Source: Cyanidioschyzon merolae (taxonomy: Eukaryota). From it: DNA of 64,000 nucleotides. The DNA lies in NCBI GenBank assembly GCA_000091205.1, contig AP006496.2, one strand, 5' to 3'. Numbering within the stretch: the first letter of the stretch is position 1; every line of letters begins with the position of its first letter. Both the position numbers and the translations under genes were made by a program. This document shows positions 29,874-63,191 of this stretch, in pieces. Below the pieces are notes generated by a model. The model saw only the letters and a list, made by a program, of their open reading frames with translations. It had not been told where the DNA came from and made no database searches.

Positions 29874-32574
29874 GCGGCATCGAGTGCGGGGTACTCAGCC
29901 GCTGCTGCTTGTACAGAAACGTATATGAATCGTAAGTATAATTGGCAACAGATATCGAGACAGGTGTGCAGCAGCGAAGCCAGCCGCGATACAGGTACTC
30001 CAAGCGCACGCCCTGCTCAGTTCTGAGGGCGACTCCGAGGCGAGGTTGTTTGCGCGATCGCGACGTTGACGACGCCCTAGGACGGCATCATCGCCAGCGG
30101 GGGGACGCTCACGCATCGCAGAGCACCCGACCAGAGGCCAGTGACACTTCCAGGTGCTTGACACCCGAAATGAGGACCCAGCTTATGCTTCGTTCCTCGC
30201 TGCACGGTGCAGGTTCTCTGGCACATGGGATGGTTCTCAGTTTCTACACCGACGTCTGCATATTGCTTCCGTTTGACGGTGCAGAACCGATGGATCAAAG
30301 CAGGATACCCCGATGAGGCTACTTGTACCAGCCGTTTGGACAGGCACTTTGGTTTCTTCATGGGCGTTTCGATGCTCTCGCGCTCACAGTACAGTGCACC
30401 CGAATGGAAAAGCGACCTGGTCCATCTTGCGCTCCTACGGTAGTAGCGTTGACTACCCGCGCTAGAGGGAATCGCCAGTGCGTGTGCTGCTGTAGACTTG
30501 TTACAGAGGCGCGACGACTTTGCGATGACTCTCATGGTGTCGGTTGGAGGAAATATTGTTCTTCCAGCGAGTCTATCAGGTACCAGTGCGAAGCATTTCG
30601 AGGAGTTGCCTCTGTCGTGGCACCGTGTGGGACGGAAATCGGAGCGCCCAACACAGCGCTTTCCGTGAAGGTGCCGCAGCCGCCTTTTCACCTACTTTAC
30701 GCTCCAATTTCCATCTCAGATGCCATGCCAGCAAGAGGCACGCATCAGCCATACCTGGGGGCTTCTATGCCGCATCGACGTAACGTGGACGCTTGGCCGA
30801 TGTTGCGGCTCTGGGCAGTTTCGCCGCAGCCTTGCCCGAGAGCACGCATTCGCAGCTCGCCGTTGGGTGCGTGCCAGGCAATCAGTGCCCTATGGCCTGT
30901 TGCTGGGGTGCTGTCCAACATGTCACTGCGAGCGTGTCTGTTGGCGTCGATGCCGCTGCGCGATGCACGCATCGTGCACGACACGCATTCGCCGACACGG
31001 ATGCATGAACAGTTTGCAATGGGTGCTATGTGTACTGTAGACCGTTTGCGCAAGCTGCTAGTCGCTGTGCCTAGTGCTCTTCACGGACGCTTAGAAACGC
31101 AGCGAATCATAGTTTTTCAAGAATAAAATTTATTCCACTCTCCCTATGGTGCACTGCAGGAGATCGACATCACGATGCAATGCATAGTATAGATCGTGGA
31201 CGAATTGCCCGTACGAGATATATTCTTAACTGAACAGTGCACGGTGGAATGGATTTCTCCTTCAGGTCAGTCATAGCACCTTGCTCCAACGGTTGAGGAA
31301 CACTGGAAGAACCAAGAATATGCGCTCCGCGCCAAAACCCGATATTCTCAAAGCGTGCTTGCGGTCAACGATAGAACAACATCCGTAGATAACCTTTTAC
31401 GGAAACCAAAAGCGATGATAATAGACACCATGGGTGTGTCTGATACTCTATATCTTATTCGTGTGGTCCTGAAAAAACAGGGATAAAATCGCAAAAACGT
31501 CCTAGTTCAAGCACGGCCATCTTCGACCGAAATCGCAACGCCAGCGTTTCTGGAACGTCGCAATCGGGATGAAGCATGGGGGCGTCGGGTTGTTTCCTTT
31601 TTCTTCGACGAGACTCTGCTCGGATAAAACCGTCGGAGCGTATATGGGTATGCGCGGAGAGGGAGCCCGTTGTATGTACGACCGAAAGTCGAATGCGAGG
31701 CCCAAGCAGCAACAGCATTCACTTTGTCGAATTATTGATGACTTTCACCGGACACCTGGCTACGTTCCTCCGCTGAACCACAAGACATTTCACCATTCCG
31801 ATTGCGTCCGAGTTTTTGCCGATTCTGGCGGTTAATGGAGCTCCTTTTCATTCCTCTGTACAGCCCGCGGTTGAAACCCATCGAAGCAGAGTTTTCTCTT
31901 GTGATACGCAATGATCGCTGCATTGGGCGAATCGCTGCAGCGTTCATCACACAGTGACGTACGGAGACACAATTCGTCTCCCATCCGCAAGTCCTACTTC
32001 CTCCAGGAACGTCCTCGCCTACCGGCACAATGGAGTGTATTCGATTTCGAAAATAAGTGGATGCGCTGGGGTGCACACATCAGAACGTCGAAATGGAGGC
32101 GAAAGTTCGAGGACTTCTTGAATTGATGAGTTCCACCACAGGTAACGGACACGTGGAGTGCGTGAACCGAGACTTGCACGCCACGAATTATATGAGGCGA
32201 TGTGTTGTGCTGATGACGAGACTTAAAGAGCTGACGCCATCCAGCTTTGTGGAGCAGCCTCTCAGGCAGGAATTGCGCCTGGATGAACTGAAGCCGATAG
32301 CAGGTGAGCGATCCAAAAAGGCTGGGTGGTGTCAGCACGAGGGTATCCATTTCATCCACATGACCGTAGAACATTTTGCGTTTGACTTACATACATAGGT
32401 TCTATTCTGGAGTGACAGAAAGAGCTTGTGGTTGGCGATAACTCTATCCCAGTTCGTGGCAGACGTTATCTTCGGGCACCCGTGCTTGGTACGCGTCTTG
32501 CGACGTTCTAGTTGATCTTGAAAGCGCTGCTTGCACTGAATGGAGTGCGCCCCTGCGGATGCAAACGTGTACCT

Positions 32575-46731: not shown

Positions 46732-47563
46732 TAGCAATGACGACACTCATCGCGCGGGAGAGGCGGTGGAGGTGGCGCTCTATGAGCAGCACAGATATTT
46801 CTCGATGTATCATTGTAAACGCGGGACTTGTAGATTCGTGTCTTTGGCACCAACGGACACCTCTTCTGTACAGAGCGGTGCATGCTGGAATGCTTGTACC
46901 AGTTTATCCTTATTGTTTTCGTTTGTTTCTCGTGCAAGGAGTTCAATAAAAGGAATGTGTCTCGTGGACTGGACAGAGATCGCGGAAAGCTTTGATGTTG
47001 TGGTCGCTATTGGCTTGCGATAATGAGCGACCTGACTATCCCAGGGCTCGGTATTGTCGAGCGTTGGGCATGCGCGCTCTCAGGGCCGTATCGAGAAGCG
47101 CGGAATACCTGGCACACTTCATGCCGTGAGCACACGAGCGATCCAGTGGCACACGCGGACGATCTTTGGTAGGTGTACATGGTGCTGCACTGGGGTTGCA
47201 AAGCGTTTCTTCTGCATGAAGGCAAGAGGCGTGCATTCGCTAACTTGTTCAATGCGTTGGAAAATAAAAAATGACTCCCAATTCGCGTCATGTGGTGGTA
47301 GCCTCCAGCGATGGATGTGCGGTTGCGCGCAAGAGCTGCCTGGTCTCTGCTGCTTCGAGGAGCGCGTAGAACGAGTGCAGGAATCGATGCTGCAAGATTC
47401 ACGTCAACTCATTCAGGACGACGTACAGGCATCACGAGCTCTGGTCAAAATTGAAATACGTAGAGAAGAAGAGAGCGCAACAGAGACGGATGCATGAAAT
47501 GGTGTACGGTATGCTGAGCGTACGTCAGCATGGGTTCCAAGTGAATCCAACGGGCTTGCACAG

Positions 47564-47590
47564 GTGTGTGTGTGTGTATGTGTTTGTGTG
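47564..47590. repeat. (TG)n microsatellite
   Basis: gtgtgtgtgtgtgtatgtgtttgtgtg. Confidence 0.8.
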
Positions 47591-47953
47591 ATTCCATCAG
47601 CTACGAAGCACCCATGTACGTTCTATATGGGGAATCGCATGCCCCGACGAACACCGGAAATGTATTGTGCTTCGAGAGCGCCCGTCGGTTTTGTGTGGAG
47701 CGAACTGGCGAGTGAATCGTTTAGTACTCAGTTTGGGCCCTGCGCTGAAACGCTGCAGAGTTTCGATGCAAAGTATCAGTTGCCAGAATCGAGGCGTTGA
47801 AATCTCGCTTGGATCGAGGCACTCTTCTGGTGCGGTCAACAGCCAAGCAAGGCTGGGGCACCATACAGATACACCGGCAACGGAGTTCCTGGAATTTTCG
47901 TGAACAAAAATGGTGTCCCGTGATCCCATGCTCCAGAGTCCAGATCGTTGGGG

Positions 47954-48742: not shown

Positions 48743-48789
48743 CTTTCAGCAACACTTATGCGCAGTAGATAGTACGTACGGGCGCCGCA

Positions 48790-51700
48790 GCCAAACGCCT
48801 TTCGAAAGTCGAACGACGTCGGGCGTGTACAGTAGCGGCGACCGGCGGCCTAGACGTAACGCTTCCAGCTGGTGTGCAGACGCCTCCCAGCGTTTCTCGG
48901 CGGGCCACGTACTATTTCTTCTAATTTCGTCTCATATACTTCTACTTTTCGAGATTGTCCAACAAAATTCCCTCTTGTCTACTCTGGAGGTCTGTTCTCC
49001 AGCACTGCCCATCTCCGGATATTGATAGCGGCGTTAAAGTCACGATTCACAAAATCCATACGTCTCCTGCAATCTCTGGTTGTACTTTCTGATGCAAGTA
49101 GTCCACGAACTTTCGCTCTCCTTTCAATTTGCTCTTCCGTCAGCGGTTCGTGCTTTGCTATTTCCGAACGGCTCGTTGGCACTTTTCCATCTCCACTGTC
49201 TGAAGTGTACAACCCATTTCATGGTGTGTATAGGACGTTCGGAACTCATGTACAGGTATCGTGAAGAAACGCCTTGCGCACTCTTTGTATGTTCTTGCCG
49301 TTGGAACTGGCGCAGTCCCTTTTTTCGACGCCGAGCACCCTGCTCTGTACGCTACTACGAGCCTCTGACTTTCATCCTCCTTCAGGGCGCTCAACTGATT
49401 GAAAAAATTCGCGAACGCCCGCTGCTTCCCACAATACAAGTTCATTCACAAACGAGCCCACCGGGGCTTGGTATACTCCTCCCACAGCGCCTCCCAATGA
49501 GCAGCGCGAACTTTCATGAATTTCCGAAAAGCTTCAAAGTCCGCTCCTCGGCTAGTCACCTCGCTCAAAGCTTCCATGTGATCCTTCACTCCTGAATTCC
49601 ATTTCTCGATTTTCTTCCTTGCATTCATTATACCGGATTCTCGATAGTATCTTGGTCTCGAGAACCTCAAAAGACGCATGTCTCTCTAACGAAAGTTACC
49701 ACCAGTACTATCTTCCGCACGCTTCGGTGCTGCGATGGTGATGATATTCGTATTCCCGGGGTCCGCGCCAACGACAAAGTCGTTATCTTGTACTTTCTGT
49801 GCCGCAGGATCCGCCTTCTTGTTTTCTTCATGCTTCGTCGCGCCAACGACAAAGTCGTTATCTTCCACTTTCTGGGTCGCAGGATCCTCCTCTTTCTTTT
49901 CTTCATGCTCCGCCGCGTCAACGACAATGTGGTTATCCTCCACCTCCTGCGTCGCAGGATCCTCCTCTTTCTTTTCTTCATGCTCCGCCGCGTCAACGAC
50001 AAAGTCGTTATCCTCCGTCTCCTGCGTAGCAGGGTGCGCCTCCTTCTCATCTTCATGCCTCGCCGCATCAACGACATGGTCGTTATCTTCCACCTCCTGC
50101 ATGAGAGGATCCTCCTCTTTGTTTTCTTCATCCTTCGTCATGGGCGCAGTCGAGGGCGGAATTGGACGATCTTTCTTCAACCGCCGATAGTGTATACACA
50201 TGGCTACTCCATCGGTTTCGATCAACCCAGTAAATACCTTTTGTTTGGTCTCTTTGAGACGTTTGAAATTGAAGATATTCTTCCAGTACGTCTCCCGGTT
50301 ATCACCGGAGAACTCCTTGTTGCTAACATTGAACTCCGGACAGATCTCCTTCATGATGCCATGAAGGATCCTGGAGTCGATACTCACAAAATGTGACTTG
50401 ATGTTGCACAACGGAACCACGTTGAACCGCTTACCCATTAGGAAAGCCTTCTGTCTCTCCCACTCTTCATTTTTCCTCACTCAGCTTCATCTCCGCCTTG
50501 CGTTCGAGTTCTCGATTCAGGAATACGAAATAGAGCAGGATGAGTTGATAGCATCTTTTTTCATCTTTTTTGAACTCTGATATTTTTTCTGTTGGATTCG
50601 CCAGCCCCATGACTGCACGGTGCTCTTGTATAACCGCACGGATTACAGAAGCCTCATTCGTGCTCTCGTTTGGCGCCTTCTTGTCGACAAATTCGACCTC
50701 ATCTTCATACTTTCGATCGTTCGTGATGCCATTGATAATCGCCCATATTCCTTTGCGAGACAGGCCCGGGTAGAGTGGAAACACGGTGCGTATTATGAAA
50801 CGTTCGAGGTTCATTGTCAAATGGTTCTTCAGGTTCGTGATGTGCTTCATCGCCCCGTAGCCGTAAATACCCCGGTCACCCTTGTATCGAGTACCGTTGA
50901 AGCTGTAAAAGGGATGTTTTTCGTGGGGGCCATGCACTAGCACATTTTCCCTCCGCGTTTTCTCTCCACCAAGCATCAGGTGTCGAATAAAGGTGATGTC
51001 GAAAAACTCGTCTGGAATCTCGACCGTTTCGATGTGCGTCACGTCTTTGTACATCTCCCTCGCCAAATGCATCAGCCCTGACGACGCCTTGACAATACTC
51101 TTGGAGTACGAGTCGACGCGTTTTTCGATAGCGTCTCGCAACTTTTCCCTGTACGGATCCTTGATATGGCCAAGAAGAAAGGCTCTCATCACCTTCTCGT
51201 CGTACAGTCGTCTTTCTTGCCGCCTTCGACGTAGGACCTCTCCCCTTCGGTTCTTTTTCTTCTCCTTTTCTTCTGGGCTCGGCACTGTTTTTCGTTTTTT
51301 CTGGCAGCCAGCGATACTGGGCCTCCAGGATCGTCGACTTGCTTTTTCATAGCTTTCCTTTTTCAGTTTTTTTAAATGAACCCGCTGTGAATGCTTCGGT
51401 TATATACTGCGAAAAAACACTTGGCCAGACTTGTTTGAGGGTTGAAACACCAATGAACTGAAAACTATATTTTTGTTCGACTCCGACGCAAATACAACTT
51501 TTACAGCTGAACAACACGCTCCTGGTCAGCATCGCGGTTCCTTTCAACGGCGGCATGTGCATCGCGTCAGTTGACTGCCTGATCTCCGAGATGCGTTCAT
51601 TAAGCGCAATGCGTCCATCGCACGAGACGCCACTCCAGTCGATGAAGGACACGTGTCCGACACCCCGCATTGGCACATGCGTGTTCGCATCGCATTGCAG

Positions 51701-51790
51701 CCAAACTAAAGTATCGTAGATAGGAAACTCACGTAGAACGATCTCTTGCTATAGACGCTGTCGCTGGTGCCGAAGCTACTGCCCATCGCA
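48790..51790 (-). mobile_element. Fanzor/TnpB-like (OMEGA-family) nuclease element, copy 1; AT-richer than surroundings; frame-disrupted
   Basis: The encoded protein pieces carry a basic NLS-like N-terminus (EKEKKKNRRGEVLRRRRQERR), the RuvC-I motif '[15 protein letters not shown]', the mid motif 'VHEFRTSYTHHE' and the RuvC-III motif 'FVNRDFNAAINIRR'. Non-coding homology to copy 2 extends about 500 bp 5' of the ATG and about 190 bp 3' of the stop. Local GC is clearly lower than the flanks. Confidence 0.65.
48979..51350 (-). pseudogene. Fanzor/TnpB-like RuvC nuclease coding region, copy 1 (split into 5 ORF pieces by frameshifts)
   Basis: The ORF pieces are 50467-51285, 49686-50480, 49446-49679, 49158-49445 and 48979-49212, all on the minus strand, and concatenate into one Fanzor-like protein. 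The breaks after KLSEEK and after EKCQRAVRK are absent in copy 2. The breaks at GNFR/MRLL and near the N-terminal MKKQ ORF are shared with copy 2. Confidence 0.6.
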
Positions 51791-52563
51791 GTACCGCCTG
51801 GACATACATGGAAATGTTGGGACCTAACGCGATACCTCGTGATGCTTCTATCAAAAGCGTAGCGTTCTCTGCGGCTTACCGTTGTGTGGATGACGTATGC
51901 ATCACTCTTCTCACTAGGAATTTCGTTAGTTTTATTCATCGTAACCAAACTAGGTACGGTGGGATTCCTGAACACGGACATACGTTTAATGCCGATGCTT
52001 GTCACGCATGCTACACTGACGCTGGAATGAGGAACTGACCTGAATTGTGCTTCTATCCTGCGTCATAGGCTGGTACTGATGACCGTTCAAGTCATTTCCA
52101 TGCTGCTGTCGTTGTCTAACTTATGGTGCCTGCTTCGTCCTCCGGATCCGGTGATCTTGGCAGAGGCATAGCACACTCGACCGGCCCCCTGCTATCGGTT
52201 TCAGCTTCTCCTTGTTCACCTCTGGCCTGGGAGGTTCCCCCAGAAAGTTGGACCGCGTCAGCTCCGCCGGTCGCGCGTTCATCACCATTCATCATCTGAT
52301 ATTGATGGCGTTTTGTCTGAAACGCTCGTGATAGAGCTGAGGTCAAGAAGCGATCAATCTTGACCGACGCTATCAAACGAGCGGTACCAGAAGCTGAGGG
52401 CTGCAGCCGGCACCAGGTGCTCTGATGCCTACATGCTGGCCGTGAATAGTGCGTGACGAAGTCGCACAGCATGCCACGGTTTCCTAGTACGTAAACCAAG
52501 CACGTATTCGAAACGTTCGGGTTCAGTGTGATGACGAGTCGCCGCTACGGCATTCTGGGAAAA

Positions 52564-53079
52564 TCATCCGAGTGCGCTATGGTTGTTCGAACATCGAGCA
52601 TCATCACGTGTATGGGTGCGTTTCACTGCACGAGTTGCAACGATCATCGAATCCACCATCATCCAAAAGTGACGAAAATTTACAAGCGTACCGGGCTCGC
52701 ACCTCCAGGTCAGGACGTGCCCACCAGCACGCAAACAAATTTCGTGCCCTGCTGTGCTTTCACCAAAAACGAAAGGAAACATGCGTTTCCTCGACCAGGG
52801 ATAGAGGGTTCCGAATTCCTTCAGATACTGCCGATGTTTCGTCCGAACCCAGACCAGCATCTGCAGTGTGCCCACGAGCATACACAGGATGCCTGCGATT
52901 GTTCGCATCATCGAGATCAATCCTACCCACGCCAGTACCTCAAATATGCAGTTCGGATACGACACGAACTCGAAAAGCAAGCCGAATGGGATCCGCCACC
53001 AGCAGCGGCCGCGAAACCCGATTGCAAACCGCTCCCGCAAGCCATTTGGGCAAACGAGTGGTGCAGCGCGCATATTCAT
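52564..53079 (-). CDS. 3-oxo-5-alpha-steroid 4-dehydrogenase (SRD5A/polyprenol reductase) C-terminal-domain protein
   Basis: 171 aa. 'RIPFGLLFEFVSYPNCIFEVLAWVGLI...RTKHRQYLKEFGTLYPWSRKRMFPFVF*' matches the SRD5A C-terminal signature 'GG.feyvS.PNY.gE..eW.G.......H..Y...F..YP..RkalIPfif'. It is shorter than full-length family members; the N-terminal TM helices were not found. Confidence 0.45.
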   Translation of the reverse strand: MNMRAAPLVCPNGLRERFAIGFRGRCWWRIPFGLLFEFVSYPNCIFEVLAWVGLISMMRTIAGILCMLVGTLQMLVWVRTKHRQYLKEFGTLYPWSRKRMFPFVFGESTAGHEICLRAGGHVLTWRCEPGTLVNFRHFWMMVDSMIVATRAVKRTHTRDDARCSNNHSALG

Positions 53080-53664
53080 ATAATGCAGCAGCAGTAGCAG
53101 CAGCAGAGTGCATCTAGGGGTGTGCGTGGATGGTGAGCATGCGTTGCGCAGCTACGATGTGCTTTCGTTGAATGCGGCAGATAGCTGCATGGATCGTTGC
53201 GTGCGGTGCGCTGCTGTGATGCGCTTTACGGGCGGCGTTCGGGAAACCTGCTTTTGCCTCACGGGAGCGCGCGTCAGTGTCGAGTAGCCCGTCGGCAGGG
53301 CCGGACAGCATCTCTTGCAAACGAGTCCGCTGGCAGCGAATCGAGCAGGCGATACGACGTTGCGCTCGTCATCGGATATCGGCACTGCAAGGCACACGGA
53401 TACCTGTAGAGCTCGTAGTTGATCGGTCTGCAACACGGTTCGGCATGCGCCTCGCCAGGGAACTGCAGAGCAAGTGTGTGCGTGCACAAACGATGCGCGC
53501 TCTGGGCTGGAAAACGACGCTGCGTCGCAGCTTGTGTCCGCAAAATATACGTACTCCTCTGGTTCGGTATCGGAAACCGCAGTAGCTACTCGCGCAGGTG
53601 CTGCTGACACAGGTATCGATTGCGCGGCGCCTGAGCGCAATATCCAACCGCCGCGACTCTGCGC

Positions 53665-54240: not shown

Positions 54241-54425
54241 TTCCGTCTCTCAGGGTCCTGCTTGTGTGGAGTACACGTTGCCCAGCAAAGCACCAGCGTA
54301 GAGCAGTCGCCACAACGATCTCCGCGCCTGTGCGCTGCGGCTGGCGCACTGCCGCATCTCATCGAGGCGAGATCGCGGCGCCTGGAAGTGGACATCAGCG
54401 GCGGCAGCGGCGGCAGCGGCAGCAG

Positions 54426-54626
54426 GTGTCACGAGCACGGGGTGCGGACATATACCAACGAACATACGGTGTGTCGATGGGTGCTGCTTTGGGTGTCACG
54501 CGCACGGGGTTCCGAAGTATATCAGTGAACATACGATGTGTCGATGGGCGCTGCTTTGGGTGTCACGCGCACGGGGTGCGGACGTATATCAGTGAACATA
54601 CGGTGTGTCGATGGGCGCTGCATTGG
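54426..54626. repeat. 67-bp tandem repeat x3 upstream of the thioredoxin gene
   Basis: The unit 'gtgtcacgcgcacggggtgcggac.tata.cagtgaacatacggtgtgtcgatgggcgctgctttgg' is repeated three times contiguously, about 190-430 bp 5' of the thioredoxin ORF. Confidence 0.8.
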
Positions 54627-56406: not shown

Positions 56407-57075
56407 TCAAGCACCAGCGCTGTAACAATGCTGGCTGGGATCCGAGCCCAAGATGACGTAGGTGTAAATTTCGTCGTTCAGCATTTGTGCGGTATACGAT
56501 GCGATAAACTTGTACCGACCAGAGGTCAGCGCTGAACGGAATACCCGTTCCATCTCTGGAACCACCAGCATTGCAGCTTCAAAGGCCTCCCGTCCAAAGA
56601 GGCCCTCGCCGCCGTATGCATACGGACTCGACCAGTTGAAATAGTGCGCTGGCAACTTTGTGGCATGCGCAGCGCCCATATAGTCGGTGCTGGTCCAGCC
56701 GCCCACGGCGAGCGCTGACTCGACAGCTGCCCGTCCGAGCGCACTGCAGTTGCCAGCGGCCACGTCTGCTATCGGACACTCCACCATGTTATCCACGACG
56801 TTCGCAGCACCAATGATCAGTCCCTTGTTCAGACACAGGTCATGATCAAGGTCTGCAAGCGCATTCATGATGGTAAAGTCGTATTGCGACACGTTCAGGG
56901 CCATAGCGTCGGTCTCGTTGATGTAGATGCCACCGAGCGCCCTGCTCGGCACCCGCAGGATACTCTCTTCGAGCGTCTCGAGGTTCAGCGGCGTAACCAC
57001 TGTCGCAGCACAACGAGACAAACATCCCGCAAGCCCCCACAGGCTAAGAAAAGCGAAAAGAAGCCACGCTCGCAT
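56407..57075 (-). CDS. secreted protein, paralog A of a small family (signal peptide, N-glycosylation sites, conserved C-terminal LGxDPSQHCY)
   Basis: 222 aa from the ATG at 57075, which starts 'MRAWLLFAFLSLWGLAGC' (a signal-peptide-like hydrophobic N-terminus). It shares 'LN.SQ..FT..NAL..L...LCLN', 'CSAL', 'GWTST', 'YFNWS' and 'LGSDPSQHCY' with the ORF at 62544-63191. The ORF-track extension to 57528 is probably non-coding. Confidence 0.5.
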   Translation of the reverse strand: MRAWLLFAFLSLWGLAGCLSRCAATVVTPLNLETLEESILRVPSRALGGIYINETDAMALNVSQYDFTIMNALADLDHDLCLNKGLIIGAANVVDNMVECPIADVAAGNCSALGRAAVESALAVGGWTSTDYMGAAHATKLPAHYFNWSSPYAYGGEGLFGREAFEAAMLVVPEMERVFRSALTSGRYKFIASYTAQMLNDEIYTYVILGSDPSQHCYSAGA

Positions 57076-57439
57076 ATTAATCAGAACAGAGCCACGTTCC
57101 AGGAAAAACAGCAATGTCTCTATCGTGGGTGGTGCTGCATTGGGGATCAAGGCGCACCGCGTGTGCGTGCGTCTGTGCGCGGAGCGCCCTGCGGCGAACA
57201 GGCCCCGGTGCAGGCCCTGCGAGACGCCGCGGTGGCACCACCGGCGCACGCCTCGGGAGCCGGCACACTCGATCCGTGGCGATCGAACAGGCCCAGCGGC
57301 AGCGCCAAAATGGGCGTTCGGGACGTCGGCGGCGCCACCAGCATCAGCGATCGGCGCCAGATTAGGAAGCGATGCGTGCCGGCGCGCGCTGTTTCCGACG
57401 TTCCAGGCGTCGACGCGTCGATGTCGGTGGTGGTGGCTG

Positions 57440-60250
57440 CGGGCGCCTGCATCTCCACTTAGGTGAGGGCGGTACTGAGATGGGCAGGAGCGTCGGCACC
57501 AGCGACATAGCATAGAGCAGGAGTGCATTCTACGTGAATTTCCAATCTAGGACACCTGATTTCAGCTGCAGTGCGATGCGAACACGCATGTGCCAATGCG
57601 GCTTCGGACACGTGTGCTTCATCGATCGGAGCAGCGTCTCGTGCAGTGCACGCATCGCGCTCGGTGAGCGCACCCCGGAGATCAGGCAGTCCATTGACGC
57701 GACGCGTATGTCGCCAATGAGGGGAAACGTGATCTTGATCAGTAACGTGTAGCCGCAATGTAAAATTGTAATTTCATTGAGTTCGTATCCAGGTATAGTT
57801 TTTATTTCAATTGTGCTTCACCCTTAAAACAAGCGTAGTCAAGTGTTTTCTCGCGGTATATAACAGAAGCGTTCAAAGAACGTTCTTTTTCAAAAAAAAA
57901 TCTAAAAAAAGGAAAGTTATGAAAAAGCAAGTCGACGATCCTGGAGGCCCAGTGTCGCTGGCTGCCAGAAAAAACGAAAAACAGTGCCGTGCCCAGAAGA
58001 AAAGGAGAAGAAAAAGAACCGAAGGGGAGAGGTCCTACGTCGAAGGCGGCAAGAAAGACGACTGTACGACGAGAAGGTGATGAGAGCCTTTCTTCTTGGC
58101 CATATCAGGGATCCGTACAGGGAAAAGTTGCGAGACGCTATCGAAAAACGCGTCGACTCGTACCCCAAGAGTATTGTCAAGGCGTCGTCAGGGCTCATGC
58201 ATTTGGCGAGGGAGATGTATCGCGACGTGACGCACATCGAAACGGTCGAGCTTCCGGACGAGTTTTTCGACATCACCTTTATTCGACACCTGATGCTTGG
58301 CACAGGGGAAGCGCGGAGGGAAAATGTGCTAGTGCATGGCCCCCACGAAAAACATCCCTTTTACAGCTTCCAGGGTAATCGATACAGCGATGACGGAAAT
58401 ATTTACACATGCGGGGTAATGAAGTACATCACGAACCCGAAGAACCATTTTACAGTGAACCTCGAACGTTTCATGATACGCGCCGTGTTTCCACTCTACC
58501 CGGGCCTGTCTCGCAAAGAAATACGGGCGATTATCAATGGCATCACGAAGGATCGTAAGCATAAAGATGAGGTCGAATTCGTCGACAAGAAGCCGTCACG
58601 CAGGAGCACGAATGAGGATTCTGTAATCCGTGCGGTTGTACAAGAGCACCGTGCGGTACTGGGGCTGGCGAGTCCAACGGAAAAGATATCAGATTTAAAA
58701 AAAGATAAGGAAAGATACTATCGCCTCGTCCCGCGATATTTTGTGTTTCTGGACCGAGAGCTCGAACGCAAGGCAGAGGTGAAGCTGAATGGGAAAAATG
58801 ACGAGTGGGAGAGACGGAGGGCTTTCCTAATGGGAAGCGCTTCAACCTCGTTCCAATGTGCAACATCAAGTCACATTTTGTGAGTATCGACTCCAGGATC
58901 CTTCATGGCATCATCAGGGAGATCTGTCCGGAGTTCGATATAAGGGAGACAGAGTTCACCGGTGAAAACCGGGAGACATACTGGAAGAATATCTTCAATT
59001 TCAAACGTCTCAAAGTGACCAAACAAAAGGTATTTACTGGGTTGATCGAAACCGATGGAGTAGCCATGTGTATACACTATCAGCGTTTGAAGAAAGATCG
59101 TCCTGGTCCGCCCTCGGCGAACCACGAAGATGAGACGGAGGCGGTTCCTGCCACGTAGAAAGTGCAGGAAAACGACTTTGTCGTTGGTGCGGCGAAGCAT
59201 AAAGATGAGGAGGAGGAGGATCCTGCGACGCATGAGGTGGAGGATAACGACTTTGTGGTAGGCGTGAACCCCGGGAACACGAATATCATAACCATCGCTG
59301 TATCCAAGCGTGCAGAAGATGGTACTGACGGCAACTTGCGTCAGAAGACATGCGACTTTTGAGGTGCTCGAGAGCAAAATGCTATCGAGAATCCGGTATC
59401 ATGAATGCAAGGAAGAAAATTGAGACATGGAATGCAGTAATGAAGGATCACCCGGAAGCTTTGAGCGAGGTGACGAGCCGCGGCGGGGACTTTAACGCTT
59501 TTCTGAAAATCATGAAACTTCGCGTTGCTCGTTGGGATGCGCTGTGGGAGGAGTATACAAAGCCTCGGTGGGCTCGTCAACGTATGAAACTATACTGTGG
59601 TAAGCGGCGCGCGTTCGCGAATTTTTTCAATCAGTTGAGCGCCCTCAAAGAGGATGAAAGTCAGAGGCTCGTAGTAGCATACGGAGCAGGGCGCTGGAAG
59701 ATCCAAAAAAGGACTACGCCAGCTCCATCGACAAGAACGTATAAGGAGTGTGCACGGCGTTTTGCTACAATACCTGTTGATGAGTTCCGAACATCGTATA
59801 CACACCATGAACGGTGATGTACGCTCCAGAGAGTCGAGATGAAAAAGCGCCAGAGGAGCCCTGAGGATATAAAAAAGTACGGAGCGCAAACGGAAGAGCA
59901 AATGGAAAGGAAAGCGAAAGTTCGTGGACTGATCGCATTGGCGAGTACAATCAATGGCAAGAAACGTATCGAATTCGTGAACCGAGACTTTAACGCCGCC
60001 ATCAATAGAAGGAGATGTGCGGCGATGGAGACGAGACCTGCGGAGTTGACAAGAGAGAATTTTATGGGGCAACCTCTCAAGGTGGAATTATACGATACGA
60101 AGCTGAAGTCAGTAGTAGGTGGCCGGTCGAGAAAGACGGGGAGGCGTCTGCATTTCAGTTGGAGACGTCTCGTCTAGGACGAGTTCGCCGCCACTGCTGT
60201 ACACCGCTGGCGGCAGCGTTGTTCTTTTGGAAAGCGTTTGTTGTTCGTGG
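57440..60250 (+). mobile_element. Fanzor/TnpB-like (OMEGA-family) nuclease element, copy 2, inverted relative to copy 1
   Basis: It has the same architecture and flanking non-coding homology as copy 1 at about 80-90% nucleotide identity. The RuvC-I motif reads '[15 protein letters not shown]' (Asp to Asn). The RuvC-III motif 'FVNRDFNAAINRRR' is present. There is an in-frame TGA at 59816-59818. Confidence 0.65.
57919..60180 (+). pseudogene. Fanzor/TnpB-like RuvC nuclease coding region, copy 2 (frameshifts plus in-frame stop)
   Basis: The ORF pieces are 57984-58883, 58805-59158, 59162-59362, 59350-59817 and 59839-60177. There is a 1-bp deletion in 'ggaaag' after AFLMG relative to copy 1, and a TGA within '...THHER*CTLQRVEM...' where copy 1 reads HHEMGCTLQTVEM. 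Confidence 0.6.
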
Positions 60251-62543
60251 TGCTCTTGCCGTTTGTCTCATGCGCGTTTGAAGGTGCGAATTTAGCAAGT
60301 CGAGTTGGGCTCGTCACGGGTGTGTGTGCACCGCAGGCGCGGGCAACGTGGTACACGACGCTCGTACCTCCACGGATGCTTCCAAGTGAACCACTGGTGC
60401 CGGACTGGTGTTCCTCTCAGAGATAGTGGTTTAACCGTTTCCGTTTCCCCGCGGTTGCTGAGCGCAGAAGGGACAGCTTTGCTGTACGAATGGACGAATA
60501 TCGCTTCGAGGTGCACTGTCCAGCATACCGGGCATAGAGGCTGATAGATCGGGCGCTTTGGTATCGGTGCGTTGCGAAACCGCGCAAGGTTCAAGAAGCA
60601 TGCAGTCCGCTTTACTTTCTGGATTTTTGGCACCAGTGCCCATATACGGTTGCTCGAACCGAATACAGTGCTTTCGCTAGGCGCTAGCGGCAACGGAGCT
60701 CAATGATCATGCGCTGCTCCAGTGTCAGAGAGAAATGGAGCTGGTGTGCTGATTCGGGTGTATTCGCTGAAGTTTTGATTTCTTTCCCTTGTGATGCGCA
60801 CCAGCTTTTGCGGACATCTTCCGCGCCCGCTTCCTTTTCGTATCTCGCATATCGGCCTCGGAATACGCCGGTGCCGTGTCTCGCCTCAGCTGCGGTGTCA
60901 GCAGCGGAAGGATGTTGATGACAGCGTTGGAGCCCGCGTTTCGTTGTTTCCCACTGCTGTTGGAGCATTTTACGCAGAGGCGCAAGTTCCTATCTACGAT
61001 TCGCTTTCCTTTTTCTGCTTCATTGTATGGAGCGTCGGTGTGCTCTTCACAGCCGTCATACGTGACTGTGGTGAGGTGTTTTCGTATATCCATCACTAGA
61101 CCCTTTCTCCTCCTCCTCCAAGGTTTTTTTGCGATGTGGCGCATGAACGCTTGCATCAGCGCTCGGTACGTGTCCTCGACTGGTACAGATGGCTCTTTTC
61201 GATGTTTTCATCAGGCGCCGCGCCCGGTGCTGTGCCCAGTGATCACGGCTCGCGTCAGACGATTCCCTCGGCGAGTACTCTGTCCACCGCACATGCAAGC
61301 GAAGGCTGTTCCACTCGATACGGGATTAGCGGCACCCGATATCGTCCGTAATCAAACAAGTGCGGGAAGGGTAATCCAGTTTAGAGAAAAGTTGAGAACA
61401 TTCGATCCGTCTCCGTTCCCTTCGCGCACAGCAATGACGCACTCTCTAAAGGGAGCGGTCGCTTCGATGACGCAAGTCGCACTCTGAATCCAAGACGATT
61501 TTCCATGCGAACACACGGGACGAGAGCCCGCTGGAGCAGTTCCCGCAAAATGTTTCGTACAGGTGTGAGATTTCTTTTCGTAGACGACCGCTAAAAGAGG
61601 CGGATTTGTGTTTTTCGAACGGAATCGATAAATTGACATGACAAGTTCAGTGGTCTTTTGGCAAGAGTTTTTGATCAAGAGGTCATGGTGCGACGTCGAG
61701 GATGCTTCTGCGTCATTCCAGCGGGGCGAGTTGCCGCGCGCACGAGTTTCCATGCAGGATATTGATCGAAAACTTGAAGAATACATGGTTTGAGCGTGGG
61801 GCACGTAGGGATCGGAAAAGGACGGAGGAACACAGGTATGCATTGGATAACGATATCGGTTATTTCACGAACCCTCGCTCGAGGGCGTCGCAAATCATCG
61901 CGATTCAACGGACGTCACGAATTCCAGCTCTGTACTGTATCGAAAGAGCCTCCCAAAGTAAATATGGCCGAGAATCACTGACCTACATATCCATCCGTAC
62001 GCCCGTATTGTTGCGCTTAGAATACCGCGGTTGTAGACCCAAGAACGCGTTCGGAATAGAGTCGGAAAGCAGGAGCAGAGTGAGCAGTTCAGTGCTCCAG
62101 TTGAGAGCCTGGCACGCGTATGAGCTCGACGCGCGCATCCATCGCCTGCCGCCGTGCACGGCAATTTGCCAGCGGCGGAAATCATCGCGCCATCGACAGG
62201 AGCCACTGTGCGCGCTGAACGACGTCGCCTTGCTGTGGGCGCGCCTCGACCCGAACGCGTCGGTGTTTGCTTCACAAAATCGCGTGCAGCAAAGGCATCG
62301 AAAGACGGGGATTCGGAGCGGCTCATGAGCGCGCGCACCATGGAATGCGTGACACGTGTCCCACAGCGGCGCGGTGACGTGCACGTGCCGAATTTGGCAG
62401 CGCTGTGTGTTGTATTGGGATGTGGATGCGGTGCGAAACGCTCGGTGTGTATCGACACGAACGCATTTGCATGTTTTTTTGCGACTGTAGCAGATACTTC
62501 AAGGCTAACCTGTGTCTTCGACTACAAGTCGTTTATTATTCCG

Positions 62544-63191
62544 ATGGTTTCGAACAGGTCTGCGTTTAGGCTAGCCGTGCTCGCTCTTGCGCTGATACTC
62601 TTTACTATGATCTGGGACGCTGCTGTCTATCGGGGAACCTCAGCGCTGCCGCTGAGCACCCAGGTACGCGCTGCAGAGAACAGAACGCACCACCTCCCCG
62701 ATGCCGTTGCAGCGGCGCTCAACTACACGCAGTTCGAGTACACGCTCGCAAACTCACTGTATAAAATCAACCCGCATATATGCCTGAACTATGCCTTGTC
62801 AGTTGCGGCAGCGAACCTGGCGGATCTCCTCACCTACTGCACGCCAGATCAGGTTGGGAATAACAGCTGTAGCGCTCTGACGCCCGGTGCTATCGCTCGG
62901 ACGCTGCTCGCTGCGGGATGGACCAGCACGAATATCCAGCTCGTGGACCTCGCAGCCAAGGTGCCAGCAAGGTATTTCAATTGGTCGACCAGTGACGGGC
63001 TCTCGGGTCTGCAAGCGTACCACGTCGGTCTTCAAGCTGCACCATACGTTGTGAACCAACTGCGGCCTTACCTACATAGTGGACAACTCAACCTGGTTGG
63101 GGTAGGTGCAGTGGCTCTCCGCACAGACTACGTGTACGCGATGGTTGCCCTGGGCGGGGATCCATCGCAACACTGCTACGAAGCGAGCTAG
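62544..63191 (+). CDS. secreted protein, paralog B of the same family as 56407-57075
   Basis: 215 aa from the ATG at 62544, which starts 'MVSNRSAFRLAVLALALILFTMIW' (signal peptide). It has several N-x-S/T sites and the same conserved blocks, ending 'LGGDPSQHCYEAS*'. Confidence 0.5.
   Translation: MVSNRSAFRLAVLALALILFTMIWDAAVYRGTSALPLSTQVRAAENRTHHLPDAVAAALNYTQFEYTLANSLYKINPHICLNYALSVAAANLADLLTYCTPDQVGNNSCSALTPGAIARTLLAAGWTSTNIQLVDLAAKVPARYFNWSTSDGLSGLQAYHVGLQAAPYVVNQLRPYLHSGQLNLVGVGAVALRTDYVYAMVALGGDPSQHCYEAS

Follow-up and report, generated by a model that had tools for sequence, protein, structure and literature searches.

When two copies of one repeat carry open reading frames (ORFs) that seem to be broken at the same places, are the breaks to be read as decay, or as introns, programmed frameshifts or unusual starts that both copies have kept? 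The question is raised by a window (the whole stretch of DNA analysed, 64,000 nucleotides (nt) long) from chromosome 14 of Cyanidioschyzon merolae 10D (assembly GCA_000091205.1, contig AP006496.2), which contains a pair of repeats in opposite orientation (copy 1, minus strand; copy 2, plus strand) bearing fragments of a gene for a Fanzor nuclease. A reading made earlier from the letters alone, referred to here as the original prediction, had described two copies, and these were confirmed as inverted, with 88% nucleotide identity across about 2.7 kb. Sequence comparison indicates that all the discontinuities in their ORFs are very probably fixed mutational lesions in dead copies of the Fanzor1 family CMe-1A, with no part played by splicing, recoding or unusual initiation. 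The 5' limit of copy 1 was taken as the start of homology to six other family copies, and its 3' limit as the end of family homology, which is also the site of a covariance-model match. The two elements and their stop codons are as follows.

48786–52176, minus strand: copy 1, Fanzor1 (CMe-1A), comprising about 825 nt of 5' region, the decayed ORF and some 65 nt of 3' tail
57442–60250, plus strand: copy 2, cut short at the 5' end compared with copy 1, leaving about 477 nt before the ATG
48850–48852, minus strand: family stop codon TAG of copy 1, common to copy 2 and the family consensus
60175–60177, plus strand: family stop codon TAG of copy 2, the same stop as in copy 1

Lesions were mapped in a codon-aware alignment of the two copies, translated column by column in one reference frame, and each was polarised site by site against nine other family members and the consensus described below. 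Every internal stop or indel in this alignment was confined to one copy. Copy 1 has five private lesions: three nonsense substitutions and two deletions, one of 2 nt and one of 1 nt.

50467–50485, minus strand: 2-nt deletion relative to the consensus, GAGT--GAGGAAAAATGA, bringing a TGA into frame at 50469–50467; identical in the metagenome loci L009, L027 and L041
49686–49688, minus strand: nonsense TAG (consensus CAG), without change of frame; identical in L009, L027 and L041
49446–49448, minus strand: nonsense TGA (consensus CGT or CGA), from the alignment and the orthologues
49174–49175, minus strand: 1-nt deletion, CCAAC-GAGCC (consensus CCAGCGGAGCC), from the alignment and the orthologues
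48979–48981, minus strand: premature TAG (consensus TGG), 43 codons short of the family stop, from the alignment and the orthologues

Copy 2 has two 1-nt deletions and two nonsense substitutions of its own, and has in addition lost the catalytic aspartate of the RuvC-I motif.

58834–58835, plus strand: 1-nt deletion after AFLMG, ATGGG-AAGCGC; identical in L010, L034, L035 and L047
59156–59158, plus strand: nonsense TAG (CAG in copy 1) within a 25-amino-acid (25-aa) repeat, from the alignment and the orthologues
59267–59269, plus strand: RuvC-I catalytic Asp to Asn (GAC>AAC); exact motif also in L035 and L047
59345–59346, plus strand: 1-nt deletion, CAG-AAGAC (consensus CAGAAAGAC), from the alignment and the orthologues
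59815–59817, plus strand: nonsense TGA (consensus GGG or GGA), from the alignment and the orthologues

Without interruption, copy 1 can be read for at most 303 codons and copy 2 for at most 325. With these private lesions, and a frameshift in an A-rich tract common to both, neither window copy contains an intact translatable ORF, and neither is expected to be able to make a functional protein.

This catalogue changes several details of the private breaks, which had previously been listed only in part: the lesions at 49448–49446, 49175/49174, 48981–48979, 59156–59158 and 59267–59269 had been missed. The frame break in copy 1 at 'GAGTGAGGAAAAATGA' (about 50478) is present, but the extra base to which it was attributed is extra only relative to copy 2 (+1); compared with the family, at 'SEEKNEEW' copy 1 misses 2 nt and copy 2 a whole codon (an in-frame 3-nt deletion). 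Copy 2 has indeed lost 1 nt after AFLMG, but that the missing base was an 'a' is not clear, the position being the third base of a Gly codon, G or T in relatives. The in-frame TGA of copy 2 is likewise present, one base away from the position first given (59816–59818). Nor do the private breaks all lie in A-rich homopolymers, as had been stated: several are substitutions, or indels outside long homopolymers. Between the two copies the ratio of nonsynonymous to synonymous divergence (dN/dS) is 0.47, with dS 0.26, values that fit a period of constraint in active ancestors and neutral decay afterwards. A mutational process resembling repeat-induced point mutation (RIP) was considered, since two lesions are CAG>TAG changes, and rejected because 134 of the 305 inter-copy differences are transversions.

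The relatives used for these comparisons came from several searches. A homology search gave 46, nearly all of them ORF fragments from JGI hot-spring metagenomes tagged DUF8286, plus a distant protein from ENA and one from Gonium pectorale; the window copies are 63–77% identical to P0001–P0044. A scan of metagenome contigs gave 51 related loci, and a second, word-index homology search with alignment returned mainly further pseudogene fragments from the same populations. Three of the loci (L009, L027 and L041) are orthologous to copy 1, with gap-free alignments at 98.3–98.8% identity, and four (L047, L035, L010 and L034) are orthologous to copy 2 at 97–99% identity. The lesions of each copy recur base for base in its orthologues, on three contigs for copy 1 and four for copy 2; two of these four show the exact Asp>Asn motif. 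Because the orthologous loci hold the same lesions, these are real and older than the split between strain 10D and the environmental strains.

This fixation bears out the earlier suggestion that the private breaks reflect pseudogenisation. It does not favour the other possibility then offered, under which sequencing or assembly had introduced the private 1-bp indels at homopolymers into ORFs that are in fact intact. Some of the indels do touch short A or G runs (GGAAAAAT, GGGG>GGG, AAA>AA), but identical indels and stops are present in all seven independently assembled orthologous contigs, which differ elsewhere from the window by 1.2–1.7%; five of the lesions are nonsense substitutions; and the deletion at 49175/49174 sits in a GG dinucleotide, with no long homopolymer. 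Such errors are an extremely unlikely explanation.

Two further discontinuities had been described as common to both copies, and on these the case for introns or recoding depended. The first, between KRAEDxTxGNxR and MRLLRxSR, turned out to consist of two distinct private lesions 4 nt apart. Copy 1 has CAG>TAG (49688–49686) with its frame unchanged; copy 2 keeps the CAG and has lost one base of the next codon (59345/59346). The family consensus is open across the position (GNLRQKDMRLLRF). By our estimate, the chance that two lesions among about 5 x 5 pairs would lie within 5 nt of each other in 2.4 kb is roughly 0.1, and their closeness is therefore unremarkable. The first break is thus not a shared feature, only a coincidence of two private lesions.

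The majority consensus was drawn from 32 distinct full-length copies (both window copies and 30 from hot-spring metagenomes), with the 3' half treated separately. Its 5' part is a single open frame running from the ATG, MKKQVDDPGGPVSPAARKKRKTVPSPEEKEKKKNQKGEALRRRRQERRLYDEMVVKACLLGHIKDPYREK..., through a poly-A tract to the tandem-repeat region, and its 3' half is open through GNLRQKDMRLLRF, ...VDEFRTSYTHHELGC...FVNRDFNAAINIRRC..., to the shared stop. The consensus is open at both of the supposedly shared positions, which are thus ordinary coding sequence in the family. Comparison with further copies, which had been proposed as a check, therefore yields a single consensus ORF, and calls for neither an intron nor a frameshift at the breaks. 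A complete ORF is lacking in all 32 full-length copies that were sampled.

The second discontinuity is real in both copies: the short ATG ORF MKKQVDDPGGPVSLAARKNEKQ is out of frame with the long ORF (V)PSPEEKEKKK. Its ATG (51350–51348 in copy 1, 57919–57921 in copy 2) is one base out of phase with the main frame, whereas L011, L012, L028 and L005, like the 32-copy consensus, read from this ATG directly in the main frame. A non-ATG start, which had been put forward to explain the break, is not supported, given these other copies. The following features are involved.

51294–51350, minus strand: start ATG (51350–51348) and first 19 codons (MKKQVDDPGGPVSLAARKN), running into the poly-A tract; in frame in relatives and the consensus
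51294–51300, minus strand: A6+C tract (A_AAA_AAC) of copy 1, 1 nt under the consensus A7; same state in the orthologue L009
57969–57975, plus strand: A6+C tract of copy 2, with a 1-nt deletion as in copy 1; identical in L010 and L047
51187–51191, minus strand: TGATG, overlap of the TGA ending the frameshifted ATG ORF with the first main-frame ATG (MRAFLLGH); ATG position not kept in L001

Across the family the A-rich tract between GCTGCCAG and ACAGTG is 15–20 nt long. Ten of 22 distinct copies are in frame across it, eight are at -1 and four at +1; among the eight at -1 are L001, L024 and the two window copies with their orthologues. The only break that both copies truly share is therefore the loss of 1 nt (A7 to A6) from a hypermutable poly-A tract. 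The first 300 nt or so of the ORFs are 99% identical between the copies (51050–51350 versus 57919–58220), compared with 88% overall, and in L009 over the tract 50814–51161, 29 of 33 differences from copy 1 are the copy-2 base; these two patterns document active gene conversion between the inverted copies. The A6 state may have been inherited by both copies from a common source copy, or may have been spread by gene conversion that homogenised these first 300 nt; either fits the data.

The same tract could be given a function. On this account the N-terminal break is a -1 programmed frameshift, or a site of transcriptional slippage, at A_AAA_AAC, giving a product in which MKKQVDDPGGPVSLAARKN is joined to RKTVPSPEEK. 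The stretch near the break had been called slippery-like, and it does contain a heptamer that fits X_XXY_YYZ in phase with the ATG frame (51300–51294 and 57969–57975); the in-phase heptamer is found also in L001, L009, L010, L024 and L047, and L001, the best-preserved copy, combines the A6 state with an open main frame of 752 codons, although a premature stop costs it the last 34 or so. However, dropping one A from AGA AAA AAA C necessarily gives an in-phase A_AAA_AAC, so that the heptamer is a by-product of the deletion. It is not conserved: the consensus and 10 of the 22 copies are simply in frame, and phases of 10:8:4 are as expected of a neutral indel hot spot. No RNA structure is predicted downstream of it, the next 113 nt having a minimum free energy of -16.4 kcal/mol, scarcely different from shuffled sequence (mean -16.2; z = -0.06). 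Each window copy has four or more further inactivating lesions, and recoding could therefore not rescue either of them. The arrangement resembles the -1 frameshifting of IS1- and IS3-family elements (A_AAA_AAG-type) in placing an A-rich X_XXY_YYZ heptamer between a short upstream frame and the main ORF, but unlike in those elements the two-frame layout is not conserved, the consensus has a single frame, and no downstream stimulatory structure is predicted. A conserved ribosomal frameshift is thus not borne out, and a functional one at this site is very unlikely. There is a similarly slight chance that in L001-like copies low-level -1 frameshifting or polymerase slippage might couple the ATG to the Fanzor frame; if true, this would amount to an IS-like recoding switch throttling expression in a eukaryotic relative of TnpB. 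The one point in its favour is the heptamer, which arises automatically.

A further account starts from the TGATG. The main ORF would have begun at the downstream ATG (MRAFLLGH, 51189–51187 and 58080–58082), and the MKKQ... ORF would be a regulatory upstream ORF (uORF) coupled to it. In both copies the uORF stop overlaps the downstream ATG by one base, and gene calls on 22 metagenome contigs include the 53-aa uORF product. The downstream ATG is not conserved in position, however, since L001 has an ATG two codons earlier and GTG here. Substitutions upstream of it fit the main frame better than the uORF frame: among the codons that differ between the window copies and L001, 5 of 15 changes are synonymous in the main frame and 1 of 12 in the uORF frame (counted by us, codon by codon, in the alignment). 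Some 25–30 residues stand ahead of the equivalent position both in P0045, a distant homologue, and in the consensus of a 53-sequence alignment, and the in-frame copies read from the upstream ATG. Such a uORF is very unlikely indeed.

The breaks might instead mark short spliceosomal introns whose removal restores the frame. Formally, the frames at the second break could be joined by excising GTATCGCTGGCTGCCAG (17 nt, 51317–51301) or a 38-nt GT..AG interval from 51338, and these are the only two GT..AG intervals able to restore the frame. Spliceosomal introns are typically longer than 17–38 nt. In copies with an in-frame ATG the nucleotides of the candidate introns are read as codons (DDPGGPxSPAAR), while the first of the two breaks, besides not being shared, involves no frame discontinuity in copy 1 or in the consensus. 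The whole C. merolae genome has only 27 introns (PMC4829280). Given the continuity of the 32-copy consensus at both positions, introns are considered excluded.

To what family, then, did the gene belong? The Fanzor label originally given to the ORFs was upheld, and the family can be named: both repeats are, on the basis of sequence profiles and the literature, members of the already known Fanzor1 family CMe-1A, and dead copies of its gene for a RuvC nuclease. CMe-1A was described from C. merolae by Bao and Jurka (2013, Mobile DNA 4:12; PMC3627910) as a family of about 150 copies in the 10D genome, some 3 kb long and about 80% identical to their consensus, with no terminal inverted repeats (TIRs) and with target-site duplications undetermined. 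The window agrees in organism, in multi-copy elements of about 3 kb at about 80% identity to the consensus, and in a TnpB-like ORF with the RuvC D-E-D motifs; there is no difference in kind, the window presenting two individual decayed copies and relics. What that paper does not contain is detail: the list of lesions, the indel hot spot in the poly-A tract and the gene conversion between copies. Residence as a mobile, multi-copy element is indicated by the 51 metagenome loci and by the two copies and two relics in the window.

Independent support for the assignment comes from profiles. An exhaustive hidden Markov model (HMM) profile search gave 3,258 representative relatives, most of 600–650 aa, after which an alignment of 53 sequences, including P0001, was made. 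Against PDB sequences the profile of this alignment matched the Fanzor1 nucleases of Parasitella parasitica (PpFz1, 9cf0; E = 5e-24), Spizellomyces punctatus (SpuFz, 8gkh; E = 5e-16) and Guillardia theta (GtFz1, 9cer; E = 1e-11), in alignments that span the DPG, DEFRTS and NRD..A.N motifs and the domain preceding them. Pfam scans of the ORF fragments and of a repaired 811-aa protein found no significant family, and neither phmmer with the repaired protein nor a 7-sequence profile found a match among PDB sequences. The RuvC triad (D484, E656 and D725 in P0001 numbering) is invariant or nearly so in the 53 sequences. Copy 1 keeps ADPGN, HEFRTS and NRDFNAAIN; copy 2 reads VNPGN at RuvC-I. The motif and the repeat that precedes it are placed as follows.

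49761–49763, minus strand: RuvC-I catalytic Asp codon GAC in VGADPGNTN, kept in copy 1; near-invariant column of the 53-sequence alignment
49763–50137, minus strand: in-frame tandem repeat of copy 1, 5.0 units of 75 nt (25 aa), just upstream of the RuvC-I motif
59115–59256, plus strand: 75-nt tandem repeat of copy 2, 1.9 units

The 25-aa unit is acidic and ends in a DNDFVV(G/D)A-like sequence that copies the strand before the catalytic Asp; the number of units differs among relatives.

The likeness to the solved Fanzor1 nucleases thus lies in the alignment of RuvC-I (DPG), RuvC-II (DEFRTS) and RuvC-III (NRD..A.N). The CMe proteins differ from them in having the variable 25-aa repeat before RuvC-I and in lacking the zinc-ribbon cysteines (THHELGC..., RGLLALVST); the window copies differ also in being pseudogenes, for which an omegaRNA is only a candidate. 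The cysteine pairs of the zinc ribbon (TNB, PF07282) are absent from the family consensus, which reads DEFRTSYTHHELGCTLQ...RGLLALVSTT, and PF07282 gives no match in P0001 and matches in 18 of the 53 distant relatives. The cysteines are replaced between RuvC-II and RuvC-III (DEFRTSYTHHELGC..., RGLLALVSTT), a region that lies at 49150–49260 (minus strand) in copy 1. This loss is derived within the CMe subfamily and, given the profile homology, is not a ground for excluding it from Fanzor1. With bacterial TnpB (IS200/IS605, IS607) the family has in common the RuvC fold and, at the 3' end, a putative structured segment; it differs in being eukaryotic, in its much longer N-terminal region and degenerate TNB zinc ribbon, and in that no TnpA partner was seen within the window.

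These comparisons give a history that is very probable and that can be read directly from the sequences, except for the route by which the A6 state came to be shared, which is inferred. The ancestral gene was one unbroken ORF of about 800 codons starting at the ATG of 'MKKQVDDPGG' and encoding, in order, a K/R-rich N-terminus, the variable 25-aa tandem repeat and the RuvC D-E-D motifs, before the common stop. The copies gained their private lesions, five in copy 1 and four in copy 2 along with its loss of the RuvC-I Asp, and in both the contraction from A7 to A6, 17 codons past the ATG, uncoupled the start from the main frame. Some points weigh against this reading. The consensus derives mostly from environmental relatives and not from the roughly 150 copies in strain 10D. 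In L001 (P0001; from a metagenome, 63% identical) the A6 state is paired with a long open frame, so that some copies may tolerate the -1 state. An AlphaFold2 model of P0001 from a 26-row alignment (mean predicted local distance difference test (pLDDT) 41.9, predicted template modelling score (pTM) 0.28) is too poor to lend structural support, so that membership of Fanzor relies on sequence profiles and the literature.

The locus is an instance of ordinary pseudogene decay in an already known family. Its ORF fragments are best treated as two Fanzor1 (CMe-1A) pseudogenes, and not as split, intron-bearing or recoded genes. The overall importance of this is small, in that it tidies the reading of the locus; more generally, apparently shared breaks in repeat copies need to be polarised against more members of a family before introns or frameshifts are called. 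Because none of the 32 sampled copies is intact, an active Fanzor protein would need to be resurrected from the consensus.

At the 3' ends of the elements, 25–65 nt past the family stop, there is a hairpin, which occurs at the same position in L001, L003, L017, L036, L042 and others.

48786–48827, minus strand: 3'-terminal hairpin of copy 1, where family homology ends; covariance model 61.5 bits
60205–60249, plus strand: 3'-terminal hairpin of copy 2 with variant arms (GCGTTGTTC / GGAAAGCGT); identical in L010; weak, at 14.4 bits

Its arms vary by subfamily (CGTTCGA/TCGAACG, CGTTTTTC/GAAAAACG, GCGTTGTTC/GGAAAGCGT) and the pairing is kept. In an alignment fitted to the covariance model, helix 2 is 93.9% paired, with 5 of its 11 pairs changed on both sides; the model scores hairpins of the CGTTCGA type strongly and those of the CGTTTTTC or GTTGTTC type weakly. 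The hairpin occurs in two registers that MAFFT could not reconcile, and RNAalifold alone, applied to the 3' 170 nt, gave 11 weak pairs without compensatory change. An Rfam scan gave no match for the hairpin, and two sub-threshold snoRNA matches that were taken as noise. The hairpin is a candidate right-end or omegaRNA structure of this Fanzor1 family, and is the obvious place to seek its omegaRNA.

Several observations concern the copies and their surroundings. A larger segmental inverted duplication was rejected as the origin of the pair because homology between the copies is limited to the element and ends at its ends. In locus L028 (Ga0080006_1136386) the 5' flank is 97.5% identical to the flank of copy 1 (window 51351–53650) and the 3' flank is unrelated, while the element body, only 86% identical to copy 1, has another set of lesions (one frameshift, with A7 in frame). 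A chimeric metagenome contig assembled across the repeat would account for this, as would ectopic recombination among the family's copies in that strain. A third family member is represented in the window as follows.

47146–47708, plus strand: older relic of the C-terminal part, strongly degraded; tblastn, 30–47% identity to query residues 593–773

About 1.1 kb separates this relic from the 3' end of copy 1, and it is found beside the copy-1 orthologues L027 and L041 too. A second C-terminal relic, at 32075–32251 (plus strand), is much more degraded than the copies; the tblastn range of 30–47% identity covers both relics.

The window as a whole is eukaryotic and intron-poor, with long unbroken ORFs for tubulin, dynamin, scramblase, mitofilin and PEX11. 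Host and locus are established by exact matches to C. merolae 10D proteins, namely beta-tubulin, CMN269C, CmDnm2/DRP5, a thioredoxin f-like protein and CMN280C. The Fanzor fragments have no NCBI protein record; the 10D annotation calls none of them, and the neighbouring genes are numbered consecutively (BAM81356 and BAM81357). Copy 2 is flanked by two paralogues in divergent orientation, CMN280C (56407–57528, minus strand) and an ORF at 62154–63191 (plus strand), which are 37% identical over 164 aa (E = 2e-33). As annotated, the N-terminal part of CMN280C (57442–57528) extends into the 5' end of copy 2, and because the metagenome gene calls in the CMN280C cluster are often shorter (197–252 aa), the true start may lie downstream of the annotated one. 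A tandem repeat of three 67-nt units (86–89% identical), unrelated to the Fanzor copies, occupies 54425–54626 in the interval from the thioredoxin gene to CMN280C.

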